Source of the DNA: Savitreella phatthalungensis
Taxonomy: Eukaryota
Length of the DNA stretch: 64,000 nucleotides
Assembly: GCA_051599415.1 (NCBI GenBank)
Contig: AP039697.1
Span: 434,001 to 498,000 of the forward strand
Direction: 5' to 3'
This document shows, piece by piece, positions 4,626-53,345 of this stretch. Under the pieces are notes generated by a model, which saw nothing but the letters and a program-made list of their open reading frames with translations, did not search any database and was not told where the DNA came from. The position numbers were made by a program, and so were the translations under genes. Positions within the stretch are counted from its first letter, which is position 1. Every line of letters begins with the position of its first letter.

Positions 4626-7600
4626 ATGAAGGCGGCATTGCTGCTCGCCGCGGCCGCACTCTCCGGCGCGCAGGCACTCACTTCAGCCGCCATCATATCT
4701 TCATCGGCCGCTTCCTCCTCCTCCTCTTCTTCCTCCTCCTCGTCGTCGTCCTCTTCCGCGACCACGACATCGACAAAGCCTTTATCGAGCTCGACGCCAG
4801 CAATCATCGCTCCTTCCTCAGTAAACACACTCGTACTTGCGTCGTCCTCTCCACGGCCTGTCGTCCAGAGCTCCAGCGCTCCTGCTTCCAGCTCACCTGC
4901 CTTCAGTGCGCCTGCTTCAAGCTCGCCCGCCGCTGCCGTCTTTACGCCTCTTGCGTTTGTCCAGCAAGTGACCACTTCCGCATCGTCATCCTCGATTCGG
5001 ACCTCCTCCACAACTGTCCAAGGCGGACGGGTCTTCCGCACGTTACCAGTCGGCACCAATTCGCCAGCGATCAGCAGCAGCACTACCAGTACTAAGCTTT
5101 CGTCCTCGACACAGACCTCGACTCGTTCTTCTTCCACGACAGCGTCGTCTTCCTTGACCAGCGCCACCCCTAGCTCTGCTGCAAAGTCCTCCTCATCCGC
5201 TAGCTCGAGATCGTCCAGCACTGCCGCAGCTCCCTCTGCTGGGACGCTCGCCACGAGCACTGGAAACTGTTATGCGGACACCAACAACGCCATGTCAGGA
5301 CCGAAGTGGACCAGCTCCACCATGACCAACCAGGTGTGTGCACAGTACTGCACAAATCTCGGCTACGCTTACTCCGGCACCGAGTACTACTTCGACTGTC
5401 ACTGCAGCAATTCCCTGCCGACCAGCGCGAAAGTCAACAACTGTAACACACCTTGTGGAGGAGACAACTCGCAGATGTGTGGTGGATCGTACGCCATGAG
5501 TGTCACGTACACGGCTCCGACCGCTAACTCGGGCAACTGTTACGCAGACCCGAATGGTCTCGCGCTCTCCGGACCGAAGGTGACGATGAACGGCATGACA
5601 AATCAGGTCTGCGCAAAGTACTGCCAGAACCTCGGATACGCATACTCCGGCACGGAGTACTACTTTGACTGTCACTGTGGCAATTCGCTCCCGTCGACGG
5701 CAAAATCCGGATCCTGCAGCACCCCCTGTGGTGGAGACAACAACCAGATCTGCGGCGGTGCATATGCGATCCTCGTCACCTATACAGCTCCTACTGCAAC
5801 CACGGGCAACTGCTACCTCGACCCACAAGGCACCGCACTCCCGGGCCCGAAGCTGACCTCTGGCTCGATGACGCCGCAGATGTGCGCAAAGTGGTGCTCC
5901 GGACAAGGATATGCATACTCTGGCACGGAGTACTACTTTGACTGCCACTGTGGCAACTCGCTCCCATCGACGGCAAAATCCGGGTCCTGCAACACGCCTT
6001 GCGGAGGAGACAACTCGCAGTACTGTGGAGGCGCCAGCGTGATCTCCGTCCTCTACACGGCGCCTGTGACGACTGGCAACTGTTATGCGGACCCAACGGG
6101 AGCCGCGATGTCCGGCCCAAAGCTGACGTCCGGCTCGATGACCGGTGCAGTATGCAGCGCGTGGTGCACGAAGCAAGGATACCCGTACTCCGGCACAGAG
6201 TACTACTTCGACTGCCACTGCTCGATGACGATGCCAACGACGCCACGCGTCGGGTACTGCGACACTCCTTGTGGCGGAGACAACTCGCAGACTTGCGGCG
6301 GCTCCTACGCCATGAGCGTCACCTACACTGCGCCCGTCACCCAGACCAACTGCTACGCCGACCCGAACGGTCTCGCCCTCCCAGGACCGAAGCTGACCTC
6401 GGGCTCGATGACACCGCAGATGTGTGCGAAGTGGTGCACATCACAGGGATACTCCTATTCTGGCGTCGAGTACTACTTTGACTGCCACTGCGGCAATTCA
6501 CTCCCTTCGACCTCACAGATCAACACGTGCAACACGCCGTGCGGCGGAGACAACTCGCAGACGTGCGGTGGCAACTATGCGCTCTCGGTCACCTACACCG
6601 CACCTTTCTCGCTCTGCTATGTAGACTCGTCATCAGCCCGGCAGATGAACGGCGCATCGACCTCGTCATCAAGCATGACGCCTAGCGCATGCGCGACCTT
6701 CTGCCTCGATGGCGGGTACGCCTACTCCGGCACAGAAGCCGGCAACCAGTGCTACTGCTCGAACGCTCTTCCGACCTCCTCCTACACGTCCTGCAGCTCC
6801 GCCTGCTCGGGCGACAGCAAGCAGATCTGTGGTGGACCATCCGCCCTGTCAGTCATGTACACTGGCGGCCCGTCGATGACGACTTCCACAAAGCGCGGTC
6901 TCTCGTGGCCGTACGACCAGCCTGGAAGCTACTTCAACTACTTCTCGCCGTCGCGGGAGACGTGGGTGTACAACTGGGAGATGTGGACGCCGAACGGGAT
7001 GACAGCCAACTACGCAGGTGCAGAGTACGTCGGCCTCGTCCACGACCCATCACGTCTAGAGCCGACAAACCAGATCGCCTGGTACTTCACCGGCGCCTCC
7101 ACCCAGCCCAAAATCCTCCTAGGCCTGAACGAGCCGGACCTCGGAGGCGTCAACATCTCCTACGCAGTCAAGCTATGGACGACCTACATGCAGCCGCTCA
7201 AGGCGCAGTACGGGACGAAGCTCGGTCTGCCTGCTGTGACGAACGGTGTTGGGACGCTGTGGGGATACGATTGGTTGCAGCAGTTTACGAACGCGTGCGG
7301 GTCTTCGTGCACGTTCGATGTGCTGCCGATCCACTGGTACGGTAACAGTCTGTCGGACTTCAAGGCTCATGTCACTCAGGCACACACACTCTACCCGAAC
7401 TTGCCCATCTGGGTGACCGAGTTCCAATTCACGGGCAAGGATGTCACTCAGACTCAGGTCCTCGTCAGGCAGGCTCTCGCCTGGCTCGATAATCAGTCCT
7501 GGGTTCAGAGGTACTGTATGTTTGGACCGATGCAGCAGTCTAGGATGGCAGGTATCAATAACGGTGCCATGCTTGTGGATGATGGTTCAGCACTCAATAC

Positions 7601-32854: not shown

Positions 32855-34151
32855 ATGAATGACATTGCCGAACAAGTACGTTCCTCCTACCACGTCAGGT
32901 GACCTTGACCACTGACACAACACAGAGCTCAAGCCAGGTCGTCAACAACCAAGGCCTGCGAAAGGTCTCCAACCCGGAAACCCAAAGGGTATGAGCAGAC
33001 TCAGTCAAGTGAAGATGATCATGAACGCTGACTCGTGACAGTCTTCCAATCCTCCTGACGCCGGCATCGTCGAGCAACCAAAGAATGTATGAACCTGAGA
33101 TACCTCAGTCAATCAACGATGATCTTGATCACTGACTCAATGCCAGAGTAATGCCAAAGGCAAAACGCCAGAGCCAGCTGGTCGCAACCACAAATCTGAT
33201 GATGATCTCGAAAAACAAGCTCTCCAAACTGAGACCATGCCTCGACGACGGGGATTGGCAACTTTCGGCAATTATGCCGGGATTCTGCTCATACTCGTCT
33301 ACCTGGTCGCGACCACATGCATGCTGCTTGTGGCATCACTCTTCGACGTAATGTGCACTATCCTCTGGACCACCAGCAAGGACTGCCCATGTCTCACTGT
33401 GAGACTCATTTACATTCTAAGGCTGTACGGCCGTCTTCTTCTACATCGCGGTTGGCAACATACATCTGTCCCACAAATGTTTTCAGGTCAAACGAGCACT
33501 CGTATCGCCAAGATTGGCTCATTTGAGCTAATTCTCTCATCTGCGGCTGATACAATCGTTCAAAGGTATGATACATCGTCCTTCGACTTCATAGAAGTCG
33601 AATGCGTACAAATGAGCTCGGCTTCGCCGACGACTTTTTGGTATCTATTGAGATCAAAACTTTCAGCAATTGTGAGGACCATGGGCCGTGTCGAAATTGA
33701 AGACTTACAACAACGGAGTAGCTTGAGACGCCGTCGACAAGAAAGGCAGGACGGCGCGAGCCAACGACAAGAGGCTCAGTTGTCCATTACGCGAGCAGAG
33801 CAGATCAAGCTTGTTGCCGAAAAAAGTTCAGACTCGGAGGTCACCGAGCATCTGCAGTACAGAGAGATCGGATATCTCCGCGGGCAAGCTGCGGTGGGCG
33901 GCGGATCCACGACAACAGACACCATTTTTTTTCTACAATCGACGAACACACTCGGGTCACAGCACTCCACGAATCTCGTGAAGTTCAGCAAGCGCCATTT
34001 CGCCGCGCTTGCGGGGGACCTGCCCGTCTATGTGCAGATCAAAGCGCATTATAGGTCTGAGAAGGGGTATCCAGTGACTCGCACGGAGCTTGCGATCGTA
34101 CCCGCGAGGTTCTTCCGAACCTGGCGGGATCTTGTTGCTGCGGACTCGTAG
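32855..34151 (+). CDS. Orphan membrane protein with three 5' micro-exons (32855-32875, 32926-32988, 33042-33086, 33147-34151), about 377 aa
   Basis: Three phase-0 introns of 50, 53 and 60 nt (GTACGT or GTATGA...CTGAC...CAG) splice ATG 32855 in frame into the 304-aa ORF. Hydrophobic segment YAGILLILVYLVATTCMLLVASLFDVMCTILW. Confidence 0.75.
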
Positions 34152-34354: not shown

Positions 34355-36138
34355 ACGAACTGCCTTGCTGAACAAGTACGTTCTCCTACCACGCCAAGTG
34401 ACCTTGACCACTGACACAAGACAGAATTCAGCACACGTCTTGAACGACCTCGGCATCCGTCAATGAGTATGAGCAGACTCAGTCAAGCGAAGATGATCCT
34501 GAACGCTGACTCATGACAGTCTCCCAATACTACTGGTGCCGACATCGCCGGTGAATCGTTATTTCCTACGGCGCCAGTGGCTGCCACAAACGAAGTATGA
34601 AACTGAAATACCTCAGTCAATCGACGATGATCTTATTCACTGACTCAATGCCAGAGTAATGCTAATGGCAAAACGCCAGCTAGTCGACGCGAGCCAACGA
34701 TCGCAGCTGGAATTCGATGTTGCTGGAGATGCACATGCCCATGTCCTCCATGAAGAAAGCACAGAGTGCGAAGTCACCGAGCATTTTCAAGATCGAGAGA
34801 ACAGATATCTAGATGGGTAAGCTGCGAGCAGCGGCGGATCGACGACGACGGACAACATACTTGTCTTTACAACTGATGGACACCCTGGGCAGTCAGCAAA
34901 CATGATCAAGTTCAAGCTTGGTAAGTCCGTGTCTGTCCCACGAATGTTTTCAGCTCAGAAGGACACCACTATTGCCGAAATCGGCCAATTCCAGGTCTTC
35001 TTCTCATCTGCGAGGAACAACGACGAACTCGAGGCAGTATTACAAGGTTTCAACATATTGTCCTTCGACTCCATGGAGGTCGAATGCGTACGGGTGAGCT
35101 CGGCTTCGCTATCAACCTTCTGGCACTATTGAGGTCAACAACGGAATACTTTGCGACGCCGTCGACAAGAAAGGCAAGACGCGGCGAGCCAACGACGGCA
35201 GCTTGGGGTAGAAGCTGCAGGAGATATACATGCCCGACTCCTCACAGAAACAAACACAGACTCGGAGGTCACCGAGGAACTCGAATATCTGGAGCCGAGA
35301 TATCTTCGCGGGCAAGCTGCGGTGAGCGGCGAATCTACGACAACAGACACCATATTTTTTTTACAATCGACGAACACCGATTGATCTGCACATAGACGGG
35401 CAGGTCCGTCGCAAGCGCGGCGAAATGCCACTTGCTGAACTTCACGAGATTCGTGGAGTGCTGTGACCCGAGTGTGTTCGTCGATTGTAAAAAAAATATG
35501 GTGTCTGTTGTCGTAGATTCGCCGCTCACCGCAGCTTGCCCGCGAAGATATCTCGGCTCCAGATATTCGAGTTCCTCGGTGACCTCCGAGTCTGTGTTTG
35601 TTTCTGTGAGGAGTCGGGCATGTATATCTCCTGCAGCTTCTACCCCAAGCTGCCGTCGTTGGCTCGCCGCGTCTTGCCTTTCTTGTCGACGGCGTCGCAA
35701 AGTACTCCGTTGTTGACCTCAATAGTGCCAGAAGGTTGACCGCTTAGGGTGTCCATTGATTGTAGAAAGAATATGTTTTCGGTTGTCATAGACCCGCCGC
35801 TTATCGCCGCTTGTCCGTGCAGGTCTGCGTTCTCTGAATATCAAATGTTTCCGGCGACTTCGGCGTCTGTGCTTCTTTCAGCAAGGAGATGGGAATATGC
35901 ATCTTCAACACCCTCGAATTCCAGCTGCCGTCGTTGGTTCGCGCCGACTAGCTAGAAGATTCCGTCCTCTTTGTAGTAAGCGCAGAAGTGAGCGCGATAG
36001 CAAGCACAGAGAATTGATTGTTCACTCTCACGAGTCGCTGGACTCCTTCTGTGTGCCTTTCAAGCAGAGTCTCCGAACCTGGAACTCAGCTTGCTGCTGC
36101 GACGGCGATATTCGTCTATGTTTGACCCTCAGAAGTTT
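34355..36138 (+). pseudogene. Scrambled tandem copy of the 32855 gene
   Basis: Start codon changed ATG to ACG (34355). The three introns are recognisable (about 34376-34655), internal modules are reshuffled or inverted, and the 3' flank 34153-34314 is repeated at 35957-36138. Confidence 0.8.
35112..35739. repeat. Near-perfect inverted repeat: 266-bp arms (35112-35377 and 35474-35739), 96-bp spacer
   Basis: The arms are reverse complements with one mismatch seen (cggaatac vs cggagtac). The ORF track shows mirror-image peptides on both strands. Confidence 0.95.
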
Positions 36139-39131: not shown

Positions 39132-39222
39132 GGCGGTGTGCCCGAGTGGTTATGGGGCCAGTTTTAGGTTTGTTTTGAAACACTGGTGCTTCGGCGCGCG
39201 AGTTCGAACCTCGTCACCGTCA
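39132..39222 (+). tRNA. tRNA-Leu(TAG) with a 12-nt intron (39169-39180)
   Basis: GGCGGTG/CACCGTC acceptor stem, CCAGT-TT-TAG-G[intron]C-ACTGG, TGC-TTCG-GCG variable arm, GTTCGAAC T-loop, and a poly-T terminator immediately after. Confidence 0.92.
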
Positions 39223-43725: not shown

Positions 43726-44438
43726 GAAGACGCCGTAGAGGCAATGGTACCTGTTTTATGTGGATAAGGAGGATACCTGTGCCTGCGAGTGTTGCAATTG
43801 ATGCATGGTGAACTGTGATCAAATATTGATTTGATCTGGTGGCTAAGATCAATAAATCAATTTGATTCTCAACTGTAAAATACAGATGACATTTTCAGAA
43901 TGCAAGAGTCAACTGAATTCATCATATGCAGTCTCTTCTCAGTCTCTCGACTGACTCTCCACTGTCTCTCCTCCATCTGGACCTTAATCTATTGATCATC
44001 CATTTTCAGATGAAGTTACATGCAGTCAAAGCCTATCGCGATCCTTCTCATACGTCTACAGTGTACTTGACTATAGCTGTCTATCGTGCATTTGATCATG
44101 AGATATCTACACCGAATTGCTGCATCATCCACAACTAAGTGTACATCTGCGATCTGCGATGTATGAGGCATGCATCTGAACACATATGCACATATGGGTC
44201 TGCACACAATTAAGCAATTTTAAACCAAACCCTGACGCGAGACTGAACTGGACTCCAAAAGTTAAGCATTAGCCACCGCCACTTAAGACCACCTCAAACT
44301 CTTACCTGTCACTGTCTCGCACCTCAATCTCTGTCTCTGGATCTCATCCATCGACATGACGAAAAGGATAGTGCATTATAACGAGAAAGATCGATAGACT
44401 GACAAAGCCTTGTCAGTAAGTAGGAAATCCCCAATCCA

Positions 44439-45191
44439 ATGATGCGACCACGCCTCTCACTGGCACGGTCGCTCTGTACTTCCAGGATCGTTCGTAATGA
44501 GCAGCTTCTGAAAGTGCCAGTCGTCAATCCAGCAGACAAGTACAAAGAGGTTTCAGACGATATCCATGCATACGGTCAGTATGTAATCTCCGCCCTACCA
44601 AAGTTTGTCCAGCGTTTCAGCGTGTGGAAGGACGAGTTGACACTCTACTGTGCTCCAACTGCTGTTCTCCCAATCGCAGTCTTCCTCAAGGATCATACAC
44701 AGGCGCAGTTCAAGGCGTGCATGGACGTCTGCGGCGTCGACTTTCCAACGCGTGACAACCGCTTTGAAGTGGTCTACAACTTTTTGAGCGTCCGCCACAA
44801 CGCTCGCATTCGTCTCAAGACCTATGCAGGGGAGACCACACCCGTGCCGTCTATCAGCGAGATTTTCAAGGGAGCCAACTGGTACGAGCGCGAAGCGTAC
44901 GACATGTTTGGTATCTTCTTCACAGGTCACCCAGACTTGCGCCGTATTTTGACAGACTATGGCTTTGAGGGACATCCACTGCGCAAGGACTTCCCTTTGA
45001 CCGGTTACACAGAGGTCGAGTACGATAATGAAAAGCGCCGCGTCGTTCACCGGCAGCTCTCCCTGGCACAAGCTTTCCGAAACTTCGATATCAATTCCGC
45101 ATGGGAGTCGTCTGGCGAAGGAGTAGACTATACCCCAGATAGGTTCCAATTGCCAACGCCCAAGCCGGAAGATGAGACGGAGAAGAAGTAG
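44439..45191 (+). CDS. NDUFS3: NADH:ubiquinone oxidoreductase 30-kDa subunit
   Basis: ANWYEREAYDMFGIFFTGHPDLRRILTDYGFEGHPLRKDFPLTGY signature. Confidence 0.97.
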   Translation: MMRPRLSLARSLCTSRIVRNEQLLKVPVVNPADKYKEVSDDIHAYGQYVISALPKFVQRFSVWKDELTLYCAPTAVLPIAVFLKDHTQAQFKACMDVCGVDFPTRDNRFEVVYNFLSVRHNARIRLKTYAGETTPVPSISEIFKGANWYEREAYDMFGIFFTGHPDLRRILTDYGFEGHPLRKDFPLTGYTEVEYDNEKRRVVHRQLSLAQAFRNFDINSAWESSGEGVDYTPDRFQLPTPKPEDETEKK

Positions 45192-45323
45192 CTGTTCTGT
45201 AGAAAGAAACATTCATTGAACCACCTTGCATTCGATGCATTTACTTTCGGCCATCTAATCTTCTATATCACATCAAAGCAAATAAACAAAGCCGCTCGCG
45301 AGAAAGGCGCTCTACAGGACACC

Positions 45324-46103
45324 ATGGCGTCCCCGATCACACAGGTCCAGGCCGGTTCCGCCTTGGCATTTGAGACTGGAGCCTTGATACATCTCGATGT
45401 GAGAGGCACGCCCTTCGAGCTTCGCCGGGAGGAGCTCACAGCCCTGCCTGAGTCCATTCTGCTATGCCTTTTCCCTGTAGGATTGATGGCGGATGACGAC
45501 GAAGCTGTGCGCGTAGACTTCTCGCCTGATGCGCTCCGCTACGTGCTCGACTTCTTCAAGGATGCCACAGAGAACCCACCAGCAATCAGCAACGTTCCGT
45601 CGCTCGTTGGCGGCAAAGCAGCAATCATTGTATTGAAAGAGGATCTGGACTTCTACATCATACCGCCGGCCGGCACGACCGACACAGACGCTCGCGCTTT
45701 GAGACACGCGGCAGGGCGCTTCCTCGTTAGCGATAGTGGAATCTTCGGCGGCCTGCGAAAGTCCACGCAGGGCAATCAAGTCGGAGCAGCAGAACAACAC
45801 CTGATCGACATGCTTTGCGCATCAGGATTCGACAGACACGATGACTGGGCAAAGCGGTTTGTCGAGCCAAAGCGAGCGTGCGTGACATCGATCGCCCTGG
45901 CCATGTTGAAACCCACTGGGGAGCAGGACGGCGAGGCGACATCGCAAAAGTTACTTCTATTCTGGCGAAAACCCGCTCGCAAGTGCTGGTGGGACGCGTG
46001 CACGCCTGCAAGCCTTCACGATTCCCACGGCGTCGAACGGCAAGTCAAGGTTTGGGCTCGACGCGTCTGGACACTTGAGCTGAGCATCACGGGAGGCATC
46101 TAG
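45324..46103 (+). CDS. WHI2: Whi2-like BTB-fold protein
   Basis: LDVRGTPFEL...LPESILLCLFP, IIVLKEDLDFY, AEQHLIDMLC, KLLLFWRKPARKCWW and RVWTLEL motifs. Confidence 0.92.
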   Translation: MASPITQVQAGSALAFETGALIHLDVRGTPFELRREELTALPESILLCLFPVGLMADDDEAVRVDFSPDALRYVLDFFKDATENPPAISNVPSLVGGKAAIIVLKEDLDFYIIPPAGTTDTDARALRHAAGRFLVSDSGIFGGLRKSTQGNQVGAAEQHLIDMLCASGFDRHDDWAKRFVEPKRACVTSIALAMLKPTGEQDGEATSQKLLLFWRKPARKCWWDACTPASLHDSHGVERQVKVWARRVWTLELSITGGI

Positions 46104-46714: not shown

Positions 46715-47314
46715 ATGGACGAATGGGTGGGTAGGGATGGAACGCTGCAAGGATCAGGCAAACGCAAACGGGCGGAGCGCCTTCACGGCGCCTTTACTGG
46801 CGGCTTCAGTGCTGGCTTTCACAACACTGTGGGATCCAAAGCTGGTTTCCAGCCCGCAACCTTTGTTTCGCGCAGAGGTAGACGCGAGCGCTTGAGCAAC
46901 ACTGCCCTAAGGTATATGGATCAGGAAGATAAGGATGACATCCTTGATCCGCGAAGAGAGGAGCTAGACGTGAAACACGATTCTCGTCGTGCCGGCGGAG
47001 AGAGAGCAGTGGAAGCATTCAAAGACGACGAGGATGGAGAAGACCCGCTGGTGTTTAAGAAGACGATCTTGAAGCACACGTTCAAAGCACGAACGGCTGA
47101 AGATACTCCCCAGCTTGTCGCATATCCTCAGTTCGTCTCGGCGGGACACACAAGCACGACAGCAGAGAGTCCAATGGAAAAAGCAGCTCGGCAAGGTAAG
47201 TACGGCCACGCTACGAGGACGACAGAAGCCTGGCTCCCATCACGTCTACTCTACAAACGTTGGGTTCAGCCGGAAGCCACAGCAGTCCATGGTAAGCGAG
47301 AAAGCACCCGATGA
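46715..47314 (+). CDS. Short GPATCH1-like protein (DUF1604 N-terminal domain)
   Basis: RLHGAFTGGFSAGFHNTVGSKAGFQPATFVSRR and YMDQED; C-terminal TRTTEAWLPSRLLYKRW. Confidence 0.8.
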   Translation: MDEWVGRDGTLQGSGKRKRAERLHGAFTGGFSAGFHNTVGSKAGFQPATFVSRRGRRERLSNTALRYMDQEDKDDILDPRREELDVKHDSRRAGGERAVEAFKDDEDGEDPLVFKKTILKHTFKARTAEDTPQLVAYPQFVSAGHTSTTAESPMEKAARQGKYGHATRTTEAWLPSRLLYKRWVQPEATAVHGKRESTR

Positions 47315-49833
47315 GCGCGGTCAACGGCAGCTACGTGCCGTGGCAAATACTCGCCGTTTTCAAGCTCGCCAAAGAGGGCGGAGAGATCTCTCCAAGATTG
47401 GATGAGGTCGTCGACGTCGTTGCAAAGCTTGAGAGCATGCCAGAGGACAGTCCTTGGCTGCAGGCTTCTGTCGAATGAAACGAGATATGCGGAAGCACTG
47501 GACGGTGGTCCATCGGCACATGGTTGGTATCGTGACAATTTCAGAGCTAGGAAAGGCGGCGACAGTGGCTTAGTCATCCTCAGTCGTACGTCCTCCTCCC
47601 GCAGCTCTTTCTGCAGTTGTAGACCTGGCTCAAGGTTCACCGTCGTCACCGACAGGATGCACTTGACACCGCTCTTGTCGAGTTTGACCATTTGCTGCCA
47701 AGCTTCGAGCTCGTCCTCAGTCATGCTTCCGACCTTGCAAACGACCACATGCCAGACGACAGGATAGACTGAACAGAGCCGCATCGTTGTACGCCACATA
47801 TCGACGAGCGTCGCGGCCATCGAGCGGCCCCGCTGCGAGGCGAATTCACGATGACAGAATACTCTAGCAGCCCCGTCCTGCCACGCCGAGGTAACCCAAT
47901 CGGAATCTGAGCGGTACGCCAGATGCATTTTGGTGTGCTCATCGGGCAACGACGGCAACTCTTCTGCGGTAACGACGAAGGATCCCACTTCAGCCATGAC
48001 TGGAGGACAAAGTCGCACGGACAGTGCAGACAGACATGTAGGGTCGATCGATGCGTCCACAGATACCGTGCGATCATATATACGCCTAGCGAGGCGAAGT
48101 AAATCCACTGAAGACATGACCACAAGCTTGCCTGGATCCGCAATAGATGCAGCGTGAACGATCGACAAGGCGATATGATGTACATTACCTCGACGCTGCA
48201 GGGTCGAGCGAACTTGCCGTACGACATCCAAAAGTCTGGTGAAGCGTGGATCGCCCTCATCAAAAACATTGACGACGAGAACGAGGACGCTGCACAGTTG
48301 GCGCTCGGTGCGTCGTAGTATGGCCGCGGAAAGGCGCGGCATTTCTGAGGACAGTTCTGGAGGATACGCTACCATTCCGTTATCGGTAGCGTCCCACGTG
48401 AGAGAGCCAAAGGAGCTGTACGATCCTGCCAGGTCATCAAGCAAGCGCAGCGTCGCCGTCCGCATGAGCTCCCCATCAGGATATAGAGCTACAGTTGTGA
48501 TGTCTTTCTTCGTTGGCGGCTGCAGACCGAGCTCCTCCCAGTAACTCAACGCCGCGAGATCGATGTCCTGCTCGCCGTCCTGTGTCCTGACCGTCACTTG
48601 CCGCGAACTCCAACCCTCCGCCTTTCTGGGCTTGCTGCGGCGGTCTTCGTATAATGCATTGAAATCGTCGATTCCCATTGGTGTTGAACGGAGTCCTAGA
48701 AGTGCTTCAAGCGACGATACCAAGGAAGCTTCAGTGTAACGACTCGAGCATCGGCTAGAACTGAAGGCAAGCTCCTCTGCAAGCATGTTGGCGTTCTGAT
48801 GCAGAGACTGTAAATCATACGCCATGCTCAAAGATGAGGTCGGTCGCGCGACCGTTTCGCCTGGCAGCAACACATTAGCGACTGTGAAGGATGGTGGCTG
48901 CTCCAACGTCAATTCAGGCTCCGGGCTGCTCTCGCTTGAAGATATTTCATCGACAAAGAATTTGCCTCCTGGGGCGTATGGATCAGCCGCTGGAGACGTT
49001 TCTGGGGAATTGTAGCCGAGGATCTCTTCAGCGCTTTTCTCGTCAAAGAAGGTGAAGTCTCCGTCCGCAATTTTGGACGATCTGGAACTGCTTGGTGAGG
49101 CAAAGTTGAACTCCGACGGCCCAGCGACATCTGCCATGATGTCCGGGTCGGCAGCATGGTCCTCAAGTGGGATCGGGTCGGGCGCGTAGAACCATTGATC
49201 CGGCGATTCGCCGTGTAGTACTTCGACGAAGACCAGAGTCTCTGGCCAGACGAGCAACTCACCTGTATCCAGTAGTCTCAGCAGAAGGAACGTGTCATCG
49301 TTCACGAGCAACTGATCGCACAAAGTCTGCTGGTATGCCTTTGGCGCTTCGTACTGACGAATAACTTGAGCTTTCCGGCCGCTTGGACTTATCAGAACTA
49401 TCCCTTCTCCTTGTTGTACGAATGTCCGCTCACTTCTCGACGTATGAAATAGAAGGTCGCCAGCTACAGTCACTTGCAGTTCGAGCTGGAGTGTCTGAGC
49501 GTCTTTCAGGACGTAGTTGCCCAATAATGGCCAGCCGCGCTGCTGGGAATCCCGCTGCACAGCGCCAACAAGAGCCCTCCTCAGCATATGCCATCTCTTG
49601 GTGACCGAGGGGTCATCTGTGAAGGCGATGTCGCCGAGATTGAGCGTGAAGTCTTCGGGGCGATCGTCTGCTTCAGTCCTACCATGAATGCCAAAGGTCC
49701 AAACTTGTCCATCTGCACACGTAGCTAGAACATTGCGATCACGCAGTCTCAATACATCTTCTTCGGCCGTCTCAGAGGCTCTGAGCGACCCCTCGACGAT
49801 AAACCTGGCGAACCGGCTCGCCGAGGTACGCAT
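47266..49833 (-). CDS. MED13: Mediator kinase-module subunit Med13 (Ssn2/Srb9)
   Basis: ALSYWEELGLQP..KKDI, HLAY...WVTSAWQDG, WHVVVCKVGSM...E...W and LPRHV motifs. First in-frame ATG at 49833, with TATATAAA about 50 bp upstream. Confidence 0.85.
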   Translation of the reverse strand: MRTSASRFARFIVEGSLRASETAEEDVLRLRDRNVLATCADGQVWTFGIHGRTEADDRPEDFTLNLGDIAFTDDPSVTKRWHMLRRALVGAVQRDSQQRGWPLLGNYVLKDAQTLQLELQVTVAGDLLFHTSRSERTFVQQGEGIVLISPSGRKAQVIRQYEAPKAYQQTLCDQLLVNDDTFLLLRLLDTGELLVWPETLVFVEVLHGESPDQWFYAPDPIPLEDHAADPDIMADVAGPSEFNFASPSSSRSSKIADGDFTFFDEKSAEEILGYNSPETSPAADPYAPGGKFFVDEISSSESSPEPELTLEQPPSFTVANVLLPGETVARPTSSLSMAYDLQSLHQNANMLAEELAFSSSRCSSRYTEASLVSSLEALLGLRSTPMGIDDFNALYEDRRSKPRKAEGWSSRQVTVRTQDGEQDIDLAALSYWEELGLQPPTKKDITTVALYPDGELMRTATLRLLDDLAGSYSSFGSLTWDATDNGMVAYPPELSSEMPRLSAAILRRTERQLCSVLVLVVNVFDEGDPRFTRLLDVVRQVRSTLQRRGNVHHIALSIVHAASIADPGKLVVMSSVDLLRLARRIYDRTVSVDASIDPTCLSALSVRLCPPVMAEVGSFVVTAEELPSLPDEHTKMHLAYRSDSDWVTSAWQDGAARVFCHREFASQRGRSMAATLVDMWRTTMRLCSVYPVVWHVVVCKVGSMTEDELEAWQQMVKLDKSGVKCILSVTTVNLEPGLQLQKELREEDVRLRMTKPLSPPFLALKLSRYQPCADGPPSSASAYLVSFDRSLQPRTVLWHALKLCNDVDDLIQSWRDLSALFGELENGEYLPRHVAAVDRAHRVLSRLPWTAVASG

Positions 49834-49964
49834 CGCCCGTGCATCTAACGCGCACGGTTCGGTGGAGCCGGTTGGCACAGTTTTATATATCGCATCTTGA
49901 CATGACGAGAATGAAAGGATAGAAGCAGACACACGACACGAAACAGTACAACCACCTCGGTGAC

Positions 49965-51122
49965 ATGACCGATGAATATCTCTCCGAGGAGGAGGATCTC
50001 GAATGCCCGCTGTGCATGGAGGAATTTGACATCAGCGATCGTACATTCAAGCCATGTCCTTGCGGCTACCAGATTTGTCGCTTTTGCTACAACCGCATTG
50101 TCAACTCGGACACGGCTGCAAATGGCTGTCCAGCGTGCAGACGACCGTACTCAGAAGCTACCGTTGAGTTCAAGCCCTTGAGTGCAGAAGAATGGAAGCG
50201 TGACCAGCAGCGCATTCAGACGCGTAAGAATAAAGAGAAGGAGAGACGAGAACTCGAAGCTGCTAGTCGCCGACACCTGAGCAACATGCGCGTCGTTCAG
50301 AAGAATCTGGTCTACGTCATTGGTTTCTCGCCAAAGAGCGCCGACGCGGACCTGGCTGCGACTCTGAGAGGGAACGACTATTTTGGCCAATATGGCAAGA
50401 TCAACAAAATCGTCGTCAACAAGAAGACCCACCCGAATGGTCAACCCACTGTCGGAGTTTACATCACATACGCGCGAAAGGAGGATGCAGCTCGTGCGAT
50501 CGCAGCCGTCGATGGCTCCGTGAACGACGGTCGCGTTTTGCGGGCATCATACGGCACGACAAAATATTGCTCTGCTTATCTACGTCAGCAGACTTGTCAA
50601 AATCCCAGTTGCATGTATCTACATGAGCCGGGCGAAGACGTTGACTCGTACACCCGCGAGGATATGTCGACGATTCAGCATGCTGCAAAATCTGCAGAAG
50701 GTGTCAACGCGAATGCCCTGGGCATGCGTCGGCAGATATCTACGACCTCGGAAGAGCAGCCTGGTCTGCCGCAGCATGCTTCCTGGGCATCGAGGCCGTC
50801 TCAACTAGCAATGTCTGTCCAGACAACATCAGAAGTCGAGCCGAAACCTCCGCAGCCTGTCAAGGAGACTGTGGCAAGACCTCCTATGCCAGCAGTCTAC
50901 TCCGACCCTATTCTCGGCAAGTTGTTCCGCAAGCTCACAGAGGGGCGATATTCCTGGAAGATCGAGGGCGAAGAATTTCCTGCATTGTTCTCATGGTCAC
51001 CCGAGGCGGCGCGCAAGAAGCATACGCGCGCGAATTCTAGATACGCGTTTGCTGAGGCACGCACGACACCACCTCCGCCGGGGCTTGCAAGCGGCATCCA
51101 ACCACCGGGATTCTCCGCATGA
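49965..51122 (+). CDS. NOT4: CCR4-NOT E3 ubiquitin ligase Not4 (RING, RRM, CCCH), 385 aa to the first stop
   Basis: CPLCMEEFDISD..FKPCPCGYQICRFC RING; RVVQKNLVYVIG; YFGQYGKI; GTTKYCSAYLR...C...CMYLHEPG. Confidence 0.96.
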   Translation: MTDEYLSEEEDLECPLCMEEFDISDRTFKPCPCGYQICRFCYNRIVNSDTAANGCPACRRPYSEATVEFKPLSAEEWKRDQQRIQTRKNKEKERRELEAASRRHLSNMRVVQKNLVYVIGFSPKSADADLAATLRGNDYFGQYGKINKIVVNKKTHPNGQPTVGVYITYARKEDAARAIAAVDGSVNDGRVLRASYGTTKYCSAYLRQQTCQNPSCMYLHEPGEDVDSYTREDMSTIQHAAKSAEGVNANALGMRRQISTTSEEQPGLPQHASWASRPSQLAMSVQTTSEVEPKPPQPVKETVARPPMPAVYSDPILGKLFRKLTEGRYSWKIEGEEFPALFSWSPEAARKKHTRANSRYAFAEARTTPPPPGLASGIQPPGFSA

Positions 51123-51584
51123 CAACCAGCTGGATCTCAGGCCGTCTCTTCTCCGGCGCCTTCACGTAATACTACCGTTGTCACGCATCACATGGCCAAA
51201 TGGGAACCATCATCGACGCCACCGATAGAAGAGCCCAAGACGATGGCTTCACCACTGAAGAAGGAGAAGGAAAAGAAGACGCCCTGGGAGCCTCAGCCGA
51301 AAACTCCAAAGATCAGAGGAAAGGACATCTTGCTTGCTCTTGCCAAGGACATGGACCTTTCCCGCTTCAGCTTCTTCCAGCAACCAATTTCAAAGTGGAC
51401 ATTCTCAGAAGAAGAGTTACAAGCTGGCGAGAGCCGGTTCAAGGTGCAAGAATCGATGATCACTCCGATGAGTGACGATGAGCTCGAACGGACGCTCAAG
51501 GAAGCACAAGCCTCGTTGGATTCTGTGACGGGTAAATTCCTACGGACACAGAGAAAGAATGTAGCTTTAGCTGGCCTACGATAG
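51123..51584 (+). other. In-frame open extension directly after the NOT4 stop (candidate readthrough segment; alternatively a 130-aa gene from ATG 51192)
   Basis: Same frame as NOT4, with no stop between TGA 51120-51122 and TAG 51582-51584. Ends in a coiled-coil-like helix. Confidence 0.7.
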
Positions 51585-52289
51585 GCATTGCGAAAGTAGG
51601 ATGTCTCTGTAGACCAGTCCCTCATGAATGCCCGTTTCCTGTGTACCATTATGCGGATCGTGCTCTGGCTCGCTCCCCTTTTTGAGGATACCAAAGTGAT
51701 ACTGACCGCCACCGGTGAGATCATTCGCGTAGGATACCCGGGGCTCGTCGTTGTACGATACACGAAGGACATTGAGATCAAAATCGAGTTCAATTGCCCA
51801 CTTGTGCCATCCGGCCGTAAAGTCGACAGTCTTGAGCAAAGGTCCACCCTTTGACAGGTTACCGTAGAGCTCAAGGCTGCCTTTGTTGACCTTGAGAACG
51901 AATTGATTAGTGGAATAGTCAGCCGTCTCGAGCCAGACAAGCTGGTACTCGTGCCTCTGGCTATCGAGATCCTTTGAAAGATCTCGCTGAATCTCAAATC
52001 CCATATAGACAGTGCCATTTACAGGGTTCATCTTCGGAAGAAGTTCAGCACGACGGAAGCCCGTCTGGACGTTGCCAGGAGAGGGCGAGAAGATCGACCT
52101 ATCATCAATCTCGATCTCGATCATCCGGTCAGACAACTGGCGCGATGCATCGGACCAGGTCAAGCCTTGACCAAGAACAAACTTTGGGTCAAAAAAATCT
52201 AGCGATGTTCCATTGACAGGGAAAGAGCATGTGGAACGCTTGCAGGGACTGGCCAGAGCCGCTGAGACAAGGAAGAAGAGAGTGAACAT
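51576..52289 (-). CDS. Secreted GH131 beta-glucanase
   Basis: Signal peptide; IDDRSIF, QTGFRRAEL, HEYQLVWLE and QYHFGILK motifs. Confidence 0.85.
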   Translation of the reverse strand: MFTLFFLVSAALASPCKRSTCSFPVNGTSLDFFDPKFVLGQGLTWSDASRQLSDRMIEIEIDDRSIFSPSPGNVQTGFRRAELLPKMNPVNGTVYMGFEIQRDLSKDLDSQRHEYQLVWLETADYSTNQFVLKVNKGSLELYGNLSKGGPLLKTVDFTAGWHKWAIELDFDLNVLRVSYNDEPRVSYANDLTGGGQYHFGILKKGSEPEHDPHNGTQETGIHEGLVYRDILLSQCLS

Positions 52290-53345
52290 TGAGTTGGTCG
52301 TACATGATGGTGAACAGCCACTTTCGGACTACTTATACATTGCGGAAAAGCTTTCGAGACGTGTATCGAATAGATAGGATATCTTGCAAACCGTGCATCA
52401 TTGAAGAACGTAACTTGTTCTTCGGTAAGCTTGAGTGGATCAAACAGCCTGTTTTCACATATTGATAAGTTGCCTACAGATGATATCTTCTAAGGATCAA
52501 GTCATGTGTAAGGCGTTCAGGTGATCGAAGGTGGCTAGTTTATCCACGCGTCATACCACACATATCCAGGTATGTATCTAAATTACCTGTAACGTAAACT
52601 CCGAGATCGATCATAATTCAAAATTAATTGATTCTAACTTCCCATCCGCCGTGGGTTATCTTAATACGTACAATGTAAAATATTCGAATGATATAGCTGA
52701 AAGTCCATCTGGGACTGACAGGCCGTCTGAGACTGATGGACACTCCAGCAATCGTTGCACACGTCCTATAAGCTGCATACAAATAATCTATCTGGAACCG
52801 AGACTAGACGAGGTCAGTCAAGTGCATTGATCGACCCAGTCGGTTAAGTGAGTGAGTGAGCGAATGAGCCAGAAAGTAGACCTCTGCCAGAGAAAAGGCA
52901 AGACCAACGGCCTGTTACTCATCATTGACTCGATCAAATACAATCAATATCATACATATGTGAGGAATACAAGCGAGCGTAGCCGAGATCAGAATCAGAT
53001 GGGGGTAAAGTATGGATTCATTGGATTGGATATACAAATAGCAAGATGTCGATTTTTGATATCTGATACGGCGGGATCGTAATGCAATGGCTGAATATAT
53101 CAGCACCTTTCTCAGATACGCAGTATTTCAACCTTCCTCTCAGGCCGATTTGATTGGCTCAACTCCACAACTGACCTAAACGGTCTGAGTGAGTCCGTTC
53201 ATTCACCAGCCTGGTCGCCAGATCTACATGGTGACAGAGTCCAGGCAGGAAGAGCGAGCATACGCAACCGTTGCGTCGACCATAACCTACCTCACAAGAC
53301 ATCGATTGAAGTTTCTACACTTCTTGAGCTACACATCCTACACAG

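Follow-up and report, generated by a model that had tools for sequence, protein, structure and literature searches.

A conserved C-terminal module of fungal Not4 behind a candidate leaky stop codon in the leaf yeast Savitreella phatthalungensis

Two kinds of described system come closest to the locus analysed here: stop codons that leak by virtue of the nucleotides after them, and C-terminal extensions that different fungi attach to one protein by different routes. The locus is the Not4 gene of Savitreella phatthalungensis, a leaf yeast of the Taphrinales, in a stretch of 64,000 nucleotides of contig AP039697.1 (assembly GCA_051599415.1, positions 434,001 to 498,000, forward strand). This whole stretch is called the window, and positions follow its numbering. 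The gene ends at a TGA beyond which the same frame stays open, so that a product of 539 amino acids (aa) might arise beside the 385-aa one. In readthrough of the tobacco mosaic virus (TMV) type, or type I, the stop codon is followed by the hexamer CARYYA; the section of PMC4132726 on leaky contexts also gives a yeast hexamer, CARNBA, and reports that, in a mammalian reporter, CARYYA acts on UGA about as well as on UAG. The Savitreella locus resembles this type in its stop codon followed by a CARYYA/CARNBA hexamer, in the absence of a downstream RNA structure and in a long in-frame extension that adds a domain. It differs in that the classic cases are UAG codons of viral RNAs, whereas here the codon is a UGA in a cellular gene, known from sequence.

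The second kind of system is represented by the peroxisomal forms of fungal glycolytic enzymes. According to the account of Freitag et al. 2012 in the relevant part of PMC3798809, the extension of PGK arises by alternative splicing in Aspergillus nidulans and by readthrough in Ustilago maydis, where TPI is extended by readthrough as well. As far as that account goes, the parallel lies in one C-terminal extension being reached either by splicing (A. nidulans PGK, and probably the metagenomic ascomycete locus L001 described below) or by a leaky stop (U. maydis PGK and TPI, and possibly the window), with a major short and a minor long form. The difference is that the glycolytic enzymes gain a short peroxisomal targeting signal, whereas Not4 would gain a 153-residue linker and helical module on an E3 ligase, by routes that are in both cases deduced.

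The upstream open reading frame (ORF) is Not4, an E3 ligase of the Mot2/CNOT4 type in which a RING is followed by an RNA recognition motif (RRM) and a C3H1 zinc finger. Pfam recognises zf-RING_4 (PF14570, C4C4 RING) at residues 14-63 (E 3.5e-19) and RRM_1 (E 4.7e-07), and in the Protein Data Bank (PDB) the Not4 RING chains 1e4u (E 1.7e-20) and 5aie (E 4e-16) match the ORF, while the CNOT4 RRM chain 2cpi aligns with residues 106-203 (E 1e-24). RING and RRM are the sole PDB sequence matches for Not4 plus extension. The zinc finger is marked by the block KYCSAYLR..C.NP.CMYLHE, which is invariant or nearly so across 20 fungal Not4 proteins. The nearest proteins are the Not4s of other Taphrinales (P0005-P0008), with 66-74% identity.

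Beyond these domains, the C-terminal part of Not4 is where its contacts with the Ccr4-Not complex have been mapped. In the portion of PMC4431670 that describes the yeast Not1-binding region (Not4C), a helix carrying L430, L434 and L437 is followed by L463, F464 and W466, and metazoan NOT4 has a CAF40-binding motif in its C-terminus, as stated in the corresponding passage of PMC6362812. A segment within the short form aligns with the LxxL...FxFxFS...PPLFxF block of 20 fungal Not4s, and its PILGKLFRKL and PALFSW would correspond by motif to the yeast region, so that Not1 binding is predicted. At E 0.01 the PDB search by sequence did not reach the Not1-bound Not4C chain, and a profile of 20 sequences did not change this. 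The 385-aa form terminates just after PPGF, like the Schizosaccharomyces Not4s, and is without the D-F-F-x-x-F-L-K tail of its nearest relatives. In many ascomycete Not4s (alignment A3), PPPGL/F is followed by S-Q-E-L-L-A-H-L-M in Saccharomycotina and by D-F-F-x-x-F-L-K in Taphrinales, and these tails finish on aromatic-residue ends (...GRW, ...GVY, ...SEY); Schizosaccharomyces and the short form in the window have no such tail. No similarity was detected between the linker of the window and the tails that its relatives carry after PPGF.

What distinguishes the Savitreella gene is the context and the sequel of its stop codon. The DNA bears out the description in the earlier note: the Not4 ORF closes at the TGA at 51120-51122, CAACCA comes next, the frame remains open for 153 codons (QPAGSQAVSS...ALAGLR) up to the TAG at 51582-51584, which overlaps the convergent GH131 gene by 9 nt, and the two forms would count 385 and 539 aa. 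The match of CAACCA to both CARYYA and the yeast consensus CARNBA, which that note had also pointed out, holds for the hexamers as given in the consulted section of PMC4132726. Among 44 stop-to-stop ORFs of at least 200 codons in the window, a comparison set that includes some spurious ORFs, Not4 alone (1/44) has either hexamer after its stop, and a longer in-frame open stretch follows the stop in only one other, where it is a separate gene.

A base-call error, envisaged in the earlier note, finds no support in the sequencing data. Contigs of run X1, a possible source of the assembly, show no differences from the stretch (word depth 56.5). A second study, of a different year, supplied run X3, in which a 231-nt contig (depth 2.8) spans 50970-51200 including the TGA and likewise agrees at every position. 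Since other X3 contigs diverge from the window (8 differences in 278 nt near its 5' end), X3 is not simply the X1 data, and the TGA, carried by contigs of both runs, is thus neither an assembly error nor private to one data set. Contigs of two further runs, X4 and X8, cover parts of the extension only, with the stop outside their range. A search of the sequencing runs for 50600-51900 turned up none recorded as RNA.

Other ways of decoding the UGA were considered as well. No RNA structure was predicted after the TGA (z 0.54), and Rfam has no match over 50900-51700. Neither selenocysteine insertion nor reassignment of UGA was retained as an explanation: TGA is the stop of 26 of the 44 long ORFs, and Dikarya are not known to have selenocysteine machinery. 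A suppressor tRNA was suggested by ARAGORN, which reports a 'tRNA-Stop (tta)' at 39132-39222 (+); this gene is probably an intron-containing tRNA-Leu(UAA), which would not read UGA. Its score against the Rfam tRNA model is 43.6 bits, its variable arm is long and its anticodon loop contains 15 inserted nt, and the ARAGORN call is most likely that tRNA-Leu(UAA) read out of register.

The extension itself falls into two parts, a linker rich in proline, serine, threonine and lysine, whose KKEKEKK patch may be a nuclear signal, and a conserved module of 100 codons. By codon log-likelihood, with 15 of the window's long ORFs as training set, the part of the linker from 51192 to 51281 scores +10.8 and the last 100 codons +17.4. 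The 69 nt directly past the TGA are coding-like in their composition: their GC content of 0.565 is above that of all 16 other post-stop segments (0.30-0.55), a level that 11% of 494 windows taken outside the long ORFs reach. Both strain differences found in the extension (51392 A>C and 51548 A>T) are synonymous third-position changes. A HMMER scan of 1.84 billion representative sequences with the extension, a search proposed in the earlier note, returned three hits: P0002, P0003 and an irrelevant repeat protein. P0003 comes from a relative, where a 962-nt contig encodes it as an ORF of 101 aa; its identity to the last 100 codons is 70%, and both end at the same residue. Because of this identity with its identical end, and because 2/2 strain differences are synonymous, the module looks constrained; that it evolves as protein holds for the last ~100 codons only.

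P0002 is the deposited model of this region, a 'hypothetical protein' of 116 aa. It ends in ...SVTERM rather than ...SVTGKFLRTQRKNVALAGLR, which needs a 22-nt 'intron' near 51533-51554 (within 51192-51584). This intron is probably an artefact of avoiding the overlap with GH131, and it deletes the most conserved part of the module. Databases of domains and structures add little. Pfam holds no family for the extension, and the tail of the ascomycete locus L001 meets only weak coiled-coil families there; the ESM Atlas gave no usable hit with the extension, and none of the 81 pattern matches in a metagenome scan with the extension was confirmed. An AlphaFold2 model built on alignment A6 is not compact (mean pLDDT 73.9, pTM 0.34), with blocks 71-90 at pLDDT 94-95, and within it the 32-residue terminal helix is a confident prediction. 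Foldseek found no match for the module model at E <=0.001.

The strongest evidence on the nature of the module comes from other fungi, where it belongs with Not4. Nine long Not4 models from Lipomyces (894-949 aa, e.g. P0025, P0026 and P0029) end in ~95-100 residues that are homologous to it and colinear with it (...FF...HFTFSQxE...ELEKEW...KKLLKLIKRNRKL). When profile A4, whose only sources are the window, P0003 and L001, was run against 121 Not4 homologues, nine were matched, each at its extreme C-terminus (E 3e-11 to 9e-9); these are the long Lipomyces models, and the other 112 remain unmatched. Among longer proteins, the module-profile search likewise yields nine matches only, all of them Lipomyces fusions with the Not4 RING. 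When the Savitreella rows (A1) are compared with the Lipomyces and L001 rows (A7) in hhalign, 75 columns align with a probability of 87% (E 4.1e-6).

A third lineage emerges from a metagenome scan with Taphrinales Not4, which gave six loci (L001-L006). L001 and L002, which differ by 1 nt, come from a metagenomic ascomycete whose Not4 is 66% identical to residues 3-236 of the window's protein. There the Not4 ORF ends in ...GNDAGGRW-TAA and is followed on the same strand by an ORF ending ...FNFTEQEISQAH...ELEKELNDAKKVVETNEKRLEKLVKRNRRLVGFVV, which matches the module profile (E 1.1e-14). The module was not found at L003-L006, three of which have too little downstream DNA to tell, with ~2.2 kb available at L006. 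The terminal helix is signed KRNRKL in the Lipomyces Not4s and KRNRRL in L001, which bears out the '...KKNRRL' ending that the earlier note had named for long Not4 models of filamentous fungi. Not4s of Lipomyces and L001 share with the window the order and the end of the module, ...FF...(H/W)FTFS(Q/E)xE...ELExxL...K(R/K)NRKL. In Lipomyces, by difference, ~300 low-complexity residues separate the canonical Not4 end from the module, and in L001 the module lies in another frame behind a donor site, where the window has a stop codon and neither canonical tail nor intron.

Three separate lineages of ascomycetes thus have the module either at the end of Not4 or directly behind it. At the level of homology, the last ~100 codons of the extension are a genuine conserved Not4-associated C-terminal module, which would represent an old alternative C-terminus of fungal Not4. 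The first half of the extension, ILLALAKDMD...RFSFF...WTFSEEEL, bears a loose and weak resemblance to the Not1-binding helix with FxFxFS, not significant alone. Positions 18-47 of A4 give secondary matches to the Not1-binding region inside all nine long Lipomyces Not4s, proteins already matched C-terminally, and 0/112 module-less Not4s were matched at E 0.01 or better. The motifs by which Not4 binds Ccr4-Not, as described in parts of PMC4431670 and PMC6362812, are short helical or extended elements in a disordered C-terminus; the likeness of the extension to them is weak, and the LFxW segment, key in the Not1-binding region, is absent from it.

How module and Not4 are joined differs among these lineages. 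In L001 a join would have to be by splicing, because the module is out of the Not4 frame and plain readthrough is impossible. A consensus donor, AAG/GTGCGT at 4739, precedes the canonical stop by 14 codons. Its putative partner is a pyrimidine-rich acceptor, ...TTATATTTAG (TTTAG), that ends at 4977 and joins the frames exactly; further donor and acceptor pairs also fit. Such an intron would swap the canonical ...GAYSVRGNDAGGRW tail for the extension. By GC content, the putative intron and the exons of L001 were not clearly separated. Among the Lipomyces proteins, the short model P0015 has ...PQGVYY as its end, where the long models run on as ...PQG/SSP...; this divergence just before the canonical ...VYY end would fit a stop-skipping intron, to judge from the protein models.

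In the window, by comparison, no plausible intron appears to remove the TGA, as the earlier note had judged. An enumeration of in-frame, stop-free GT/GC-AG candidates across the TGA gave 322, of which 60 have GT donors (8 distinct sites). None of the 322 has a GTRNGT donor, and 50850-51420 is free of CTRAY motifs. The last GT precedes the TGA by 73 nt and falls within the NSRYAFA...PPGL...PPGF block that is conserved in relatives. Intron-like elements elsewhere in the window, which are unvalidated, measure 49-57 nt, with GTAAGT or GTACGT as donor and CTGAC or CTGAT as branch motif; the regular expression behind them matched 28 times in the window and 60 times in shuffled sequence, and served to pick examples only.

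Given the conserved module, the lack of a plausible intron and the leaky-stop context, readthrough is the most economical join in Savitreella. It makes sense at once of two ORFs in one frame, of a linker that is open and GC-rich, of the hexamer, of the lack of an intron and of the module's descent from Not4. That readthrough of the UGA yields a 385-aa and a 539-aa Not4 is a proposition to which we give an even chance. One gene would then have two products. Most ribosomes would halt at UGA 51120 and release the 385-aa Not4, in which RING, RRM and zinc finger are already present along with the Not1-binding-type segment. A minority of them would insert an amino acid at the UGA through a near-cognate tRNA (in yeast usually Trp, Cys or Arg), favoured by UGA-C and the CAA CCA context and without the aid of an RNA structure, and would add 153 codons, giving a 539-aa Not4 with the linker and the helical module ending ...RKNVALAGLR. 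As to its history, an ancestral stop-skipping intron may have been lost through copying of the spliced long form, and the canonical tail with it, after which a leaky stop at the old junction would have restored the short form. The leaky stop in Savitreella would in this way do the job of the putative intron in L001 and, presumably, in Lipomyces.

The two isoforms proposed in the earlier note thus stand as far as the association of the module with Not4, the missing intron and the fitting context are concerned; their weak point is the junction, and several observations weigh against readthrough there and elsewhere. The 23 codons from the TGA to the first ATG (51123-51191) score -0.5 in the codon statistics and fit coding and non-coding sequence about equally, leaving a clear coding signal only from ATG 51192 on. 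The in-frame ATGs at 51192 and 51243 (A at -3, G at +4, a good start context at 51243) could begin an independent protein; the deposited 116-aa P0002 is annotated separately from Not4, and the relative's P0003 starts at its own Met just ahead of the conserved block. Tandem genes in the window may lie as little as ~140 nt apart and in frame by chance, as after the NADH-dehydrogenase 30-kDa gene, where so short a spacer is tolerated. The nearest relatives, P0005-P0008, carry a different tail of 45-60 aa after PPGF, and TGA and hexamer could be compared only among near-identical strains (X1 and X3). The ATGs, the separate models, the coding signal and the tandem spacers are what would be expected of a gene fission, in which the old extension exon of Not4 would have turned, in the Savitreella lineage, into a small gene of its own encoding ~113-130 aa, starting at 51192 or 51243 from a promoter in the 3' coding region of Not4, with Not4 itself confined to 385 aa. 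We regard fission as unlikely, though a serious contender. It would leave the shared frame and the 23 stop-free codons to coincidence (together ~0.1 by simple odds), and the CARYYA hexamer too (1/512 in random sequence, 1/44 among the long ORFs). Only 69 nt separate the TGA from ATG 51192, and their high GC content sets them apart from the other 16 post-stop regions. The gene models come from automatic annotation, and the deposited one ends in an implausible 22-nt intron; and the module is fused to Not4 in the nine Lipomyces models and spliceable onto it in L001.

Two further explanations concern the origin and the fate of the TGA itself. If an intron-less ancestor had always made the long form and a recent point mutation had created the TGA at 51120, the extension would now be untranslated and decaying. 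Homology to the Not4s of relatives does stop exactly at PPGF, as it would in a cDNA-like long form later given a stop, and this stop has been seen in near-identical strains only. Such a nonsense allele is nevertheless improbable, because a second data set, from a different study and year, carries the TGA and because the extension is intact. Decay is also hard to reconcile with 153 codons free of stops and frameshifts, in which the only two strain differences are synonymous, or with two database searches that gave no contiguous Not4-plus-extension protein, one returning the window's 385-aa protein only, the other three unfused hits, and the leaky hexamer would once more be a coincidence. If the stop were removed in the RNA, whether by editing or by a non-canonical intron of the GC-AG or another type, the long form would be made from processed mRNA. 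The homologous module of L001 would indeed have to be joined by splicing, and in-frame GC-AG candidates are present, e.g. GCAAGC at 51087 to AG 51140 (54 nt) and GCAAGT at 50917 to AG 51228. Yet the donor and branch signals described above are lacking, which makes unusual splicing unlikely, while the unvalidated intron-like elements elsewhere in the window do have them. Every candidate with a decent donor would delete Not4 residues conserved in relatives, and the DNA contigs, which are silent on RNA, contain no such joint. Processing of this kind we rate as very improbable indeed. Context-driven readthrough remains the best explanation of the locus. A wider version of it would see the lysine patch, the helix with its FxFS echo and the KRNRKL-type helix as an ancient second C-terminus of Not4, added by an intron that bypasses the canonical stop in most ascomycetes and by a leaky UGA in Savitreella. 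As Not4 itself works on translating ribosomes, the ratio of short to long form, governed by termination efficiency, would act as a termination-sensing autoregulatory switch that feeds back on Ccr4-Not. This is a speculative idea with little probability attached.

The features of the locus are collected in the following table.

Table 1. Features of the Not4 locus in window coordinates
Feature	Position	Strand	Details
Not4 (Mot2/CNOT4-type E3 ligase), short ORF	49965..51122	+	385 codons + TGA, from ATG 49965
Not1-binding-type segment (DPILGKLFRKL ... RYSWKI ... PALFSW), within the short form	50904..50996	+	predicted by motif alignment
Stop TGA with hexamer CAACCA	51120..51128	+	fits CARYYA and CARNBA; same in X1 and X3 contigs
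Linker, 53 codons, P/S/T/K-rich	51123..51281	+	open in frame; ATGs 51192 and 51243; KKEKEKK 51258-51278
Conserved module, 100 codons	51282..51581	+	PWEPQPKTPKIRGKD, helix ILLALAKDMD, RFSFF...KWTFSEEELQ, terminal helix DELERTLKEAQASLDSVTGKFLRTQRKNVALAGLR
Predicted long C-terminal alpha-helix	51474..51569	+	AlphaFold2 model residues 65-96
Second stop TAG	51582..51584	+	would close the 539-aa form
Convergent GH131 gene	51576..52328	-	Pfam GH131_N 9.2e-30; overlaps the end of the extension by 9 nt

The surroundings of Not4 offer some observations of their own. The gene of the NADH-dehydrogenase 30-kDa subunit (Pfam Complex1_30kDa, 4.9e-49; window 44424-46103, +) has a TAG at 45189-45191 followed by 303 in-frame codons. 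Readthrough was considered for it and rejected: the TAG is followed by an AT-rich spacer of ~140 nt (GC 0.435) and then by a gene of its own, MASPITQVQ..., without a Pfam match. This case serves as a control, yet it shows that in-frame neighbours by chance and short spacers do occur here. A Complex1_30kDa-like gene also adjoins Not4 in L001, and the synteny of the two may be old. On the other strand, a 921-codon ORF at 47266-50031 (-) encoding Mediator Med13's C-terminal domain (1.4e-18) is divergent from Not4; since its stop-to-stop frame overlaps the start region of Not4, the two share a very short promoter region. Farther away, at 32876-32925 and 34376-34424 (+), two near-identical intron-like elements of 49-50 nt (GTACGTTC...CCACTGACACAA.ACAG) lie 1.5 kb apart, with similar upstream flanks (...GCCGAACAA and ...GCTGAACAA), which points to two related genes in tandem, both beginning with a very short exon.

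Through Not4, mRNA decay is connected with ubiquitylation and with co-translational quality control; where the protein sits in Ccr4-Not is determined by its C-terminus. In the literature searched (titles and the openings of abstracts), nothing was found on readthrough of Not4 or on an alternative C-terminus of fungal Not4, and the papers found on Savitreella deal with taxonomy only. The mechanism would be ordinary context-type readthrough, and an exchange of splicing for readthrough has a fungal precedent in PGK and TPI, within what the cited part of PMC3798809 covers. If readthrough operates in Savitreella and splicing in other ascomycetes, Not4 would join the peroxisomal glycolytic enzymes as the second clear case in which evolution has put a leaky stop in place of splicing while retaining both isoforms, and the module would define an unstudied isoform of a much-studied regulator. 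Automatic annotation at present splits or truncates the protein, into 385 aa and a 116-aa 'hypothetical' here and into short and long models in Lipomyces. The conserved C-terminal module of fungal Not4 that lies hidden behind these models may be the more useful lead.

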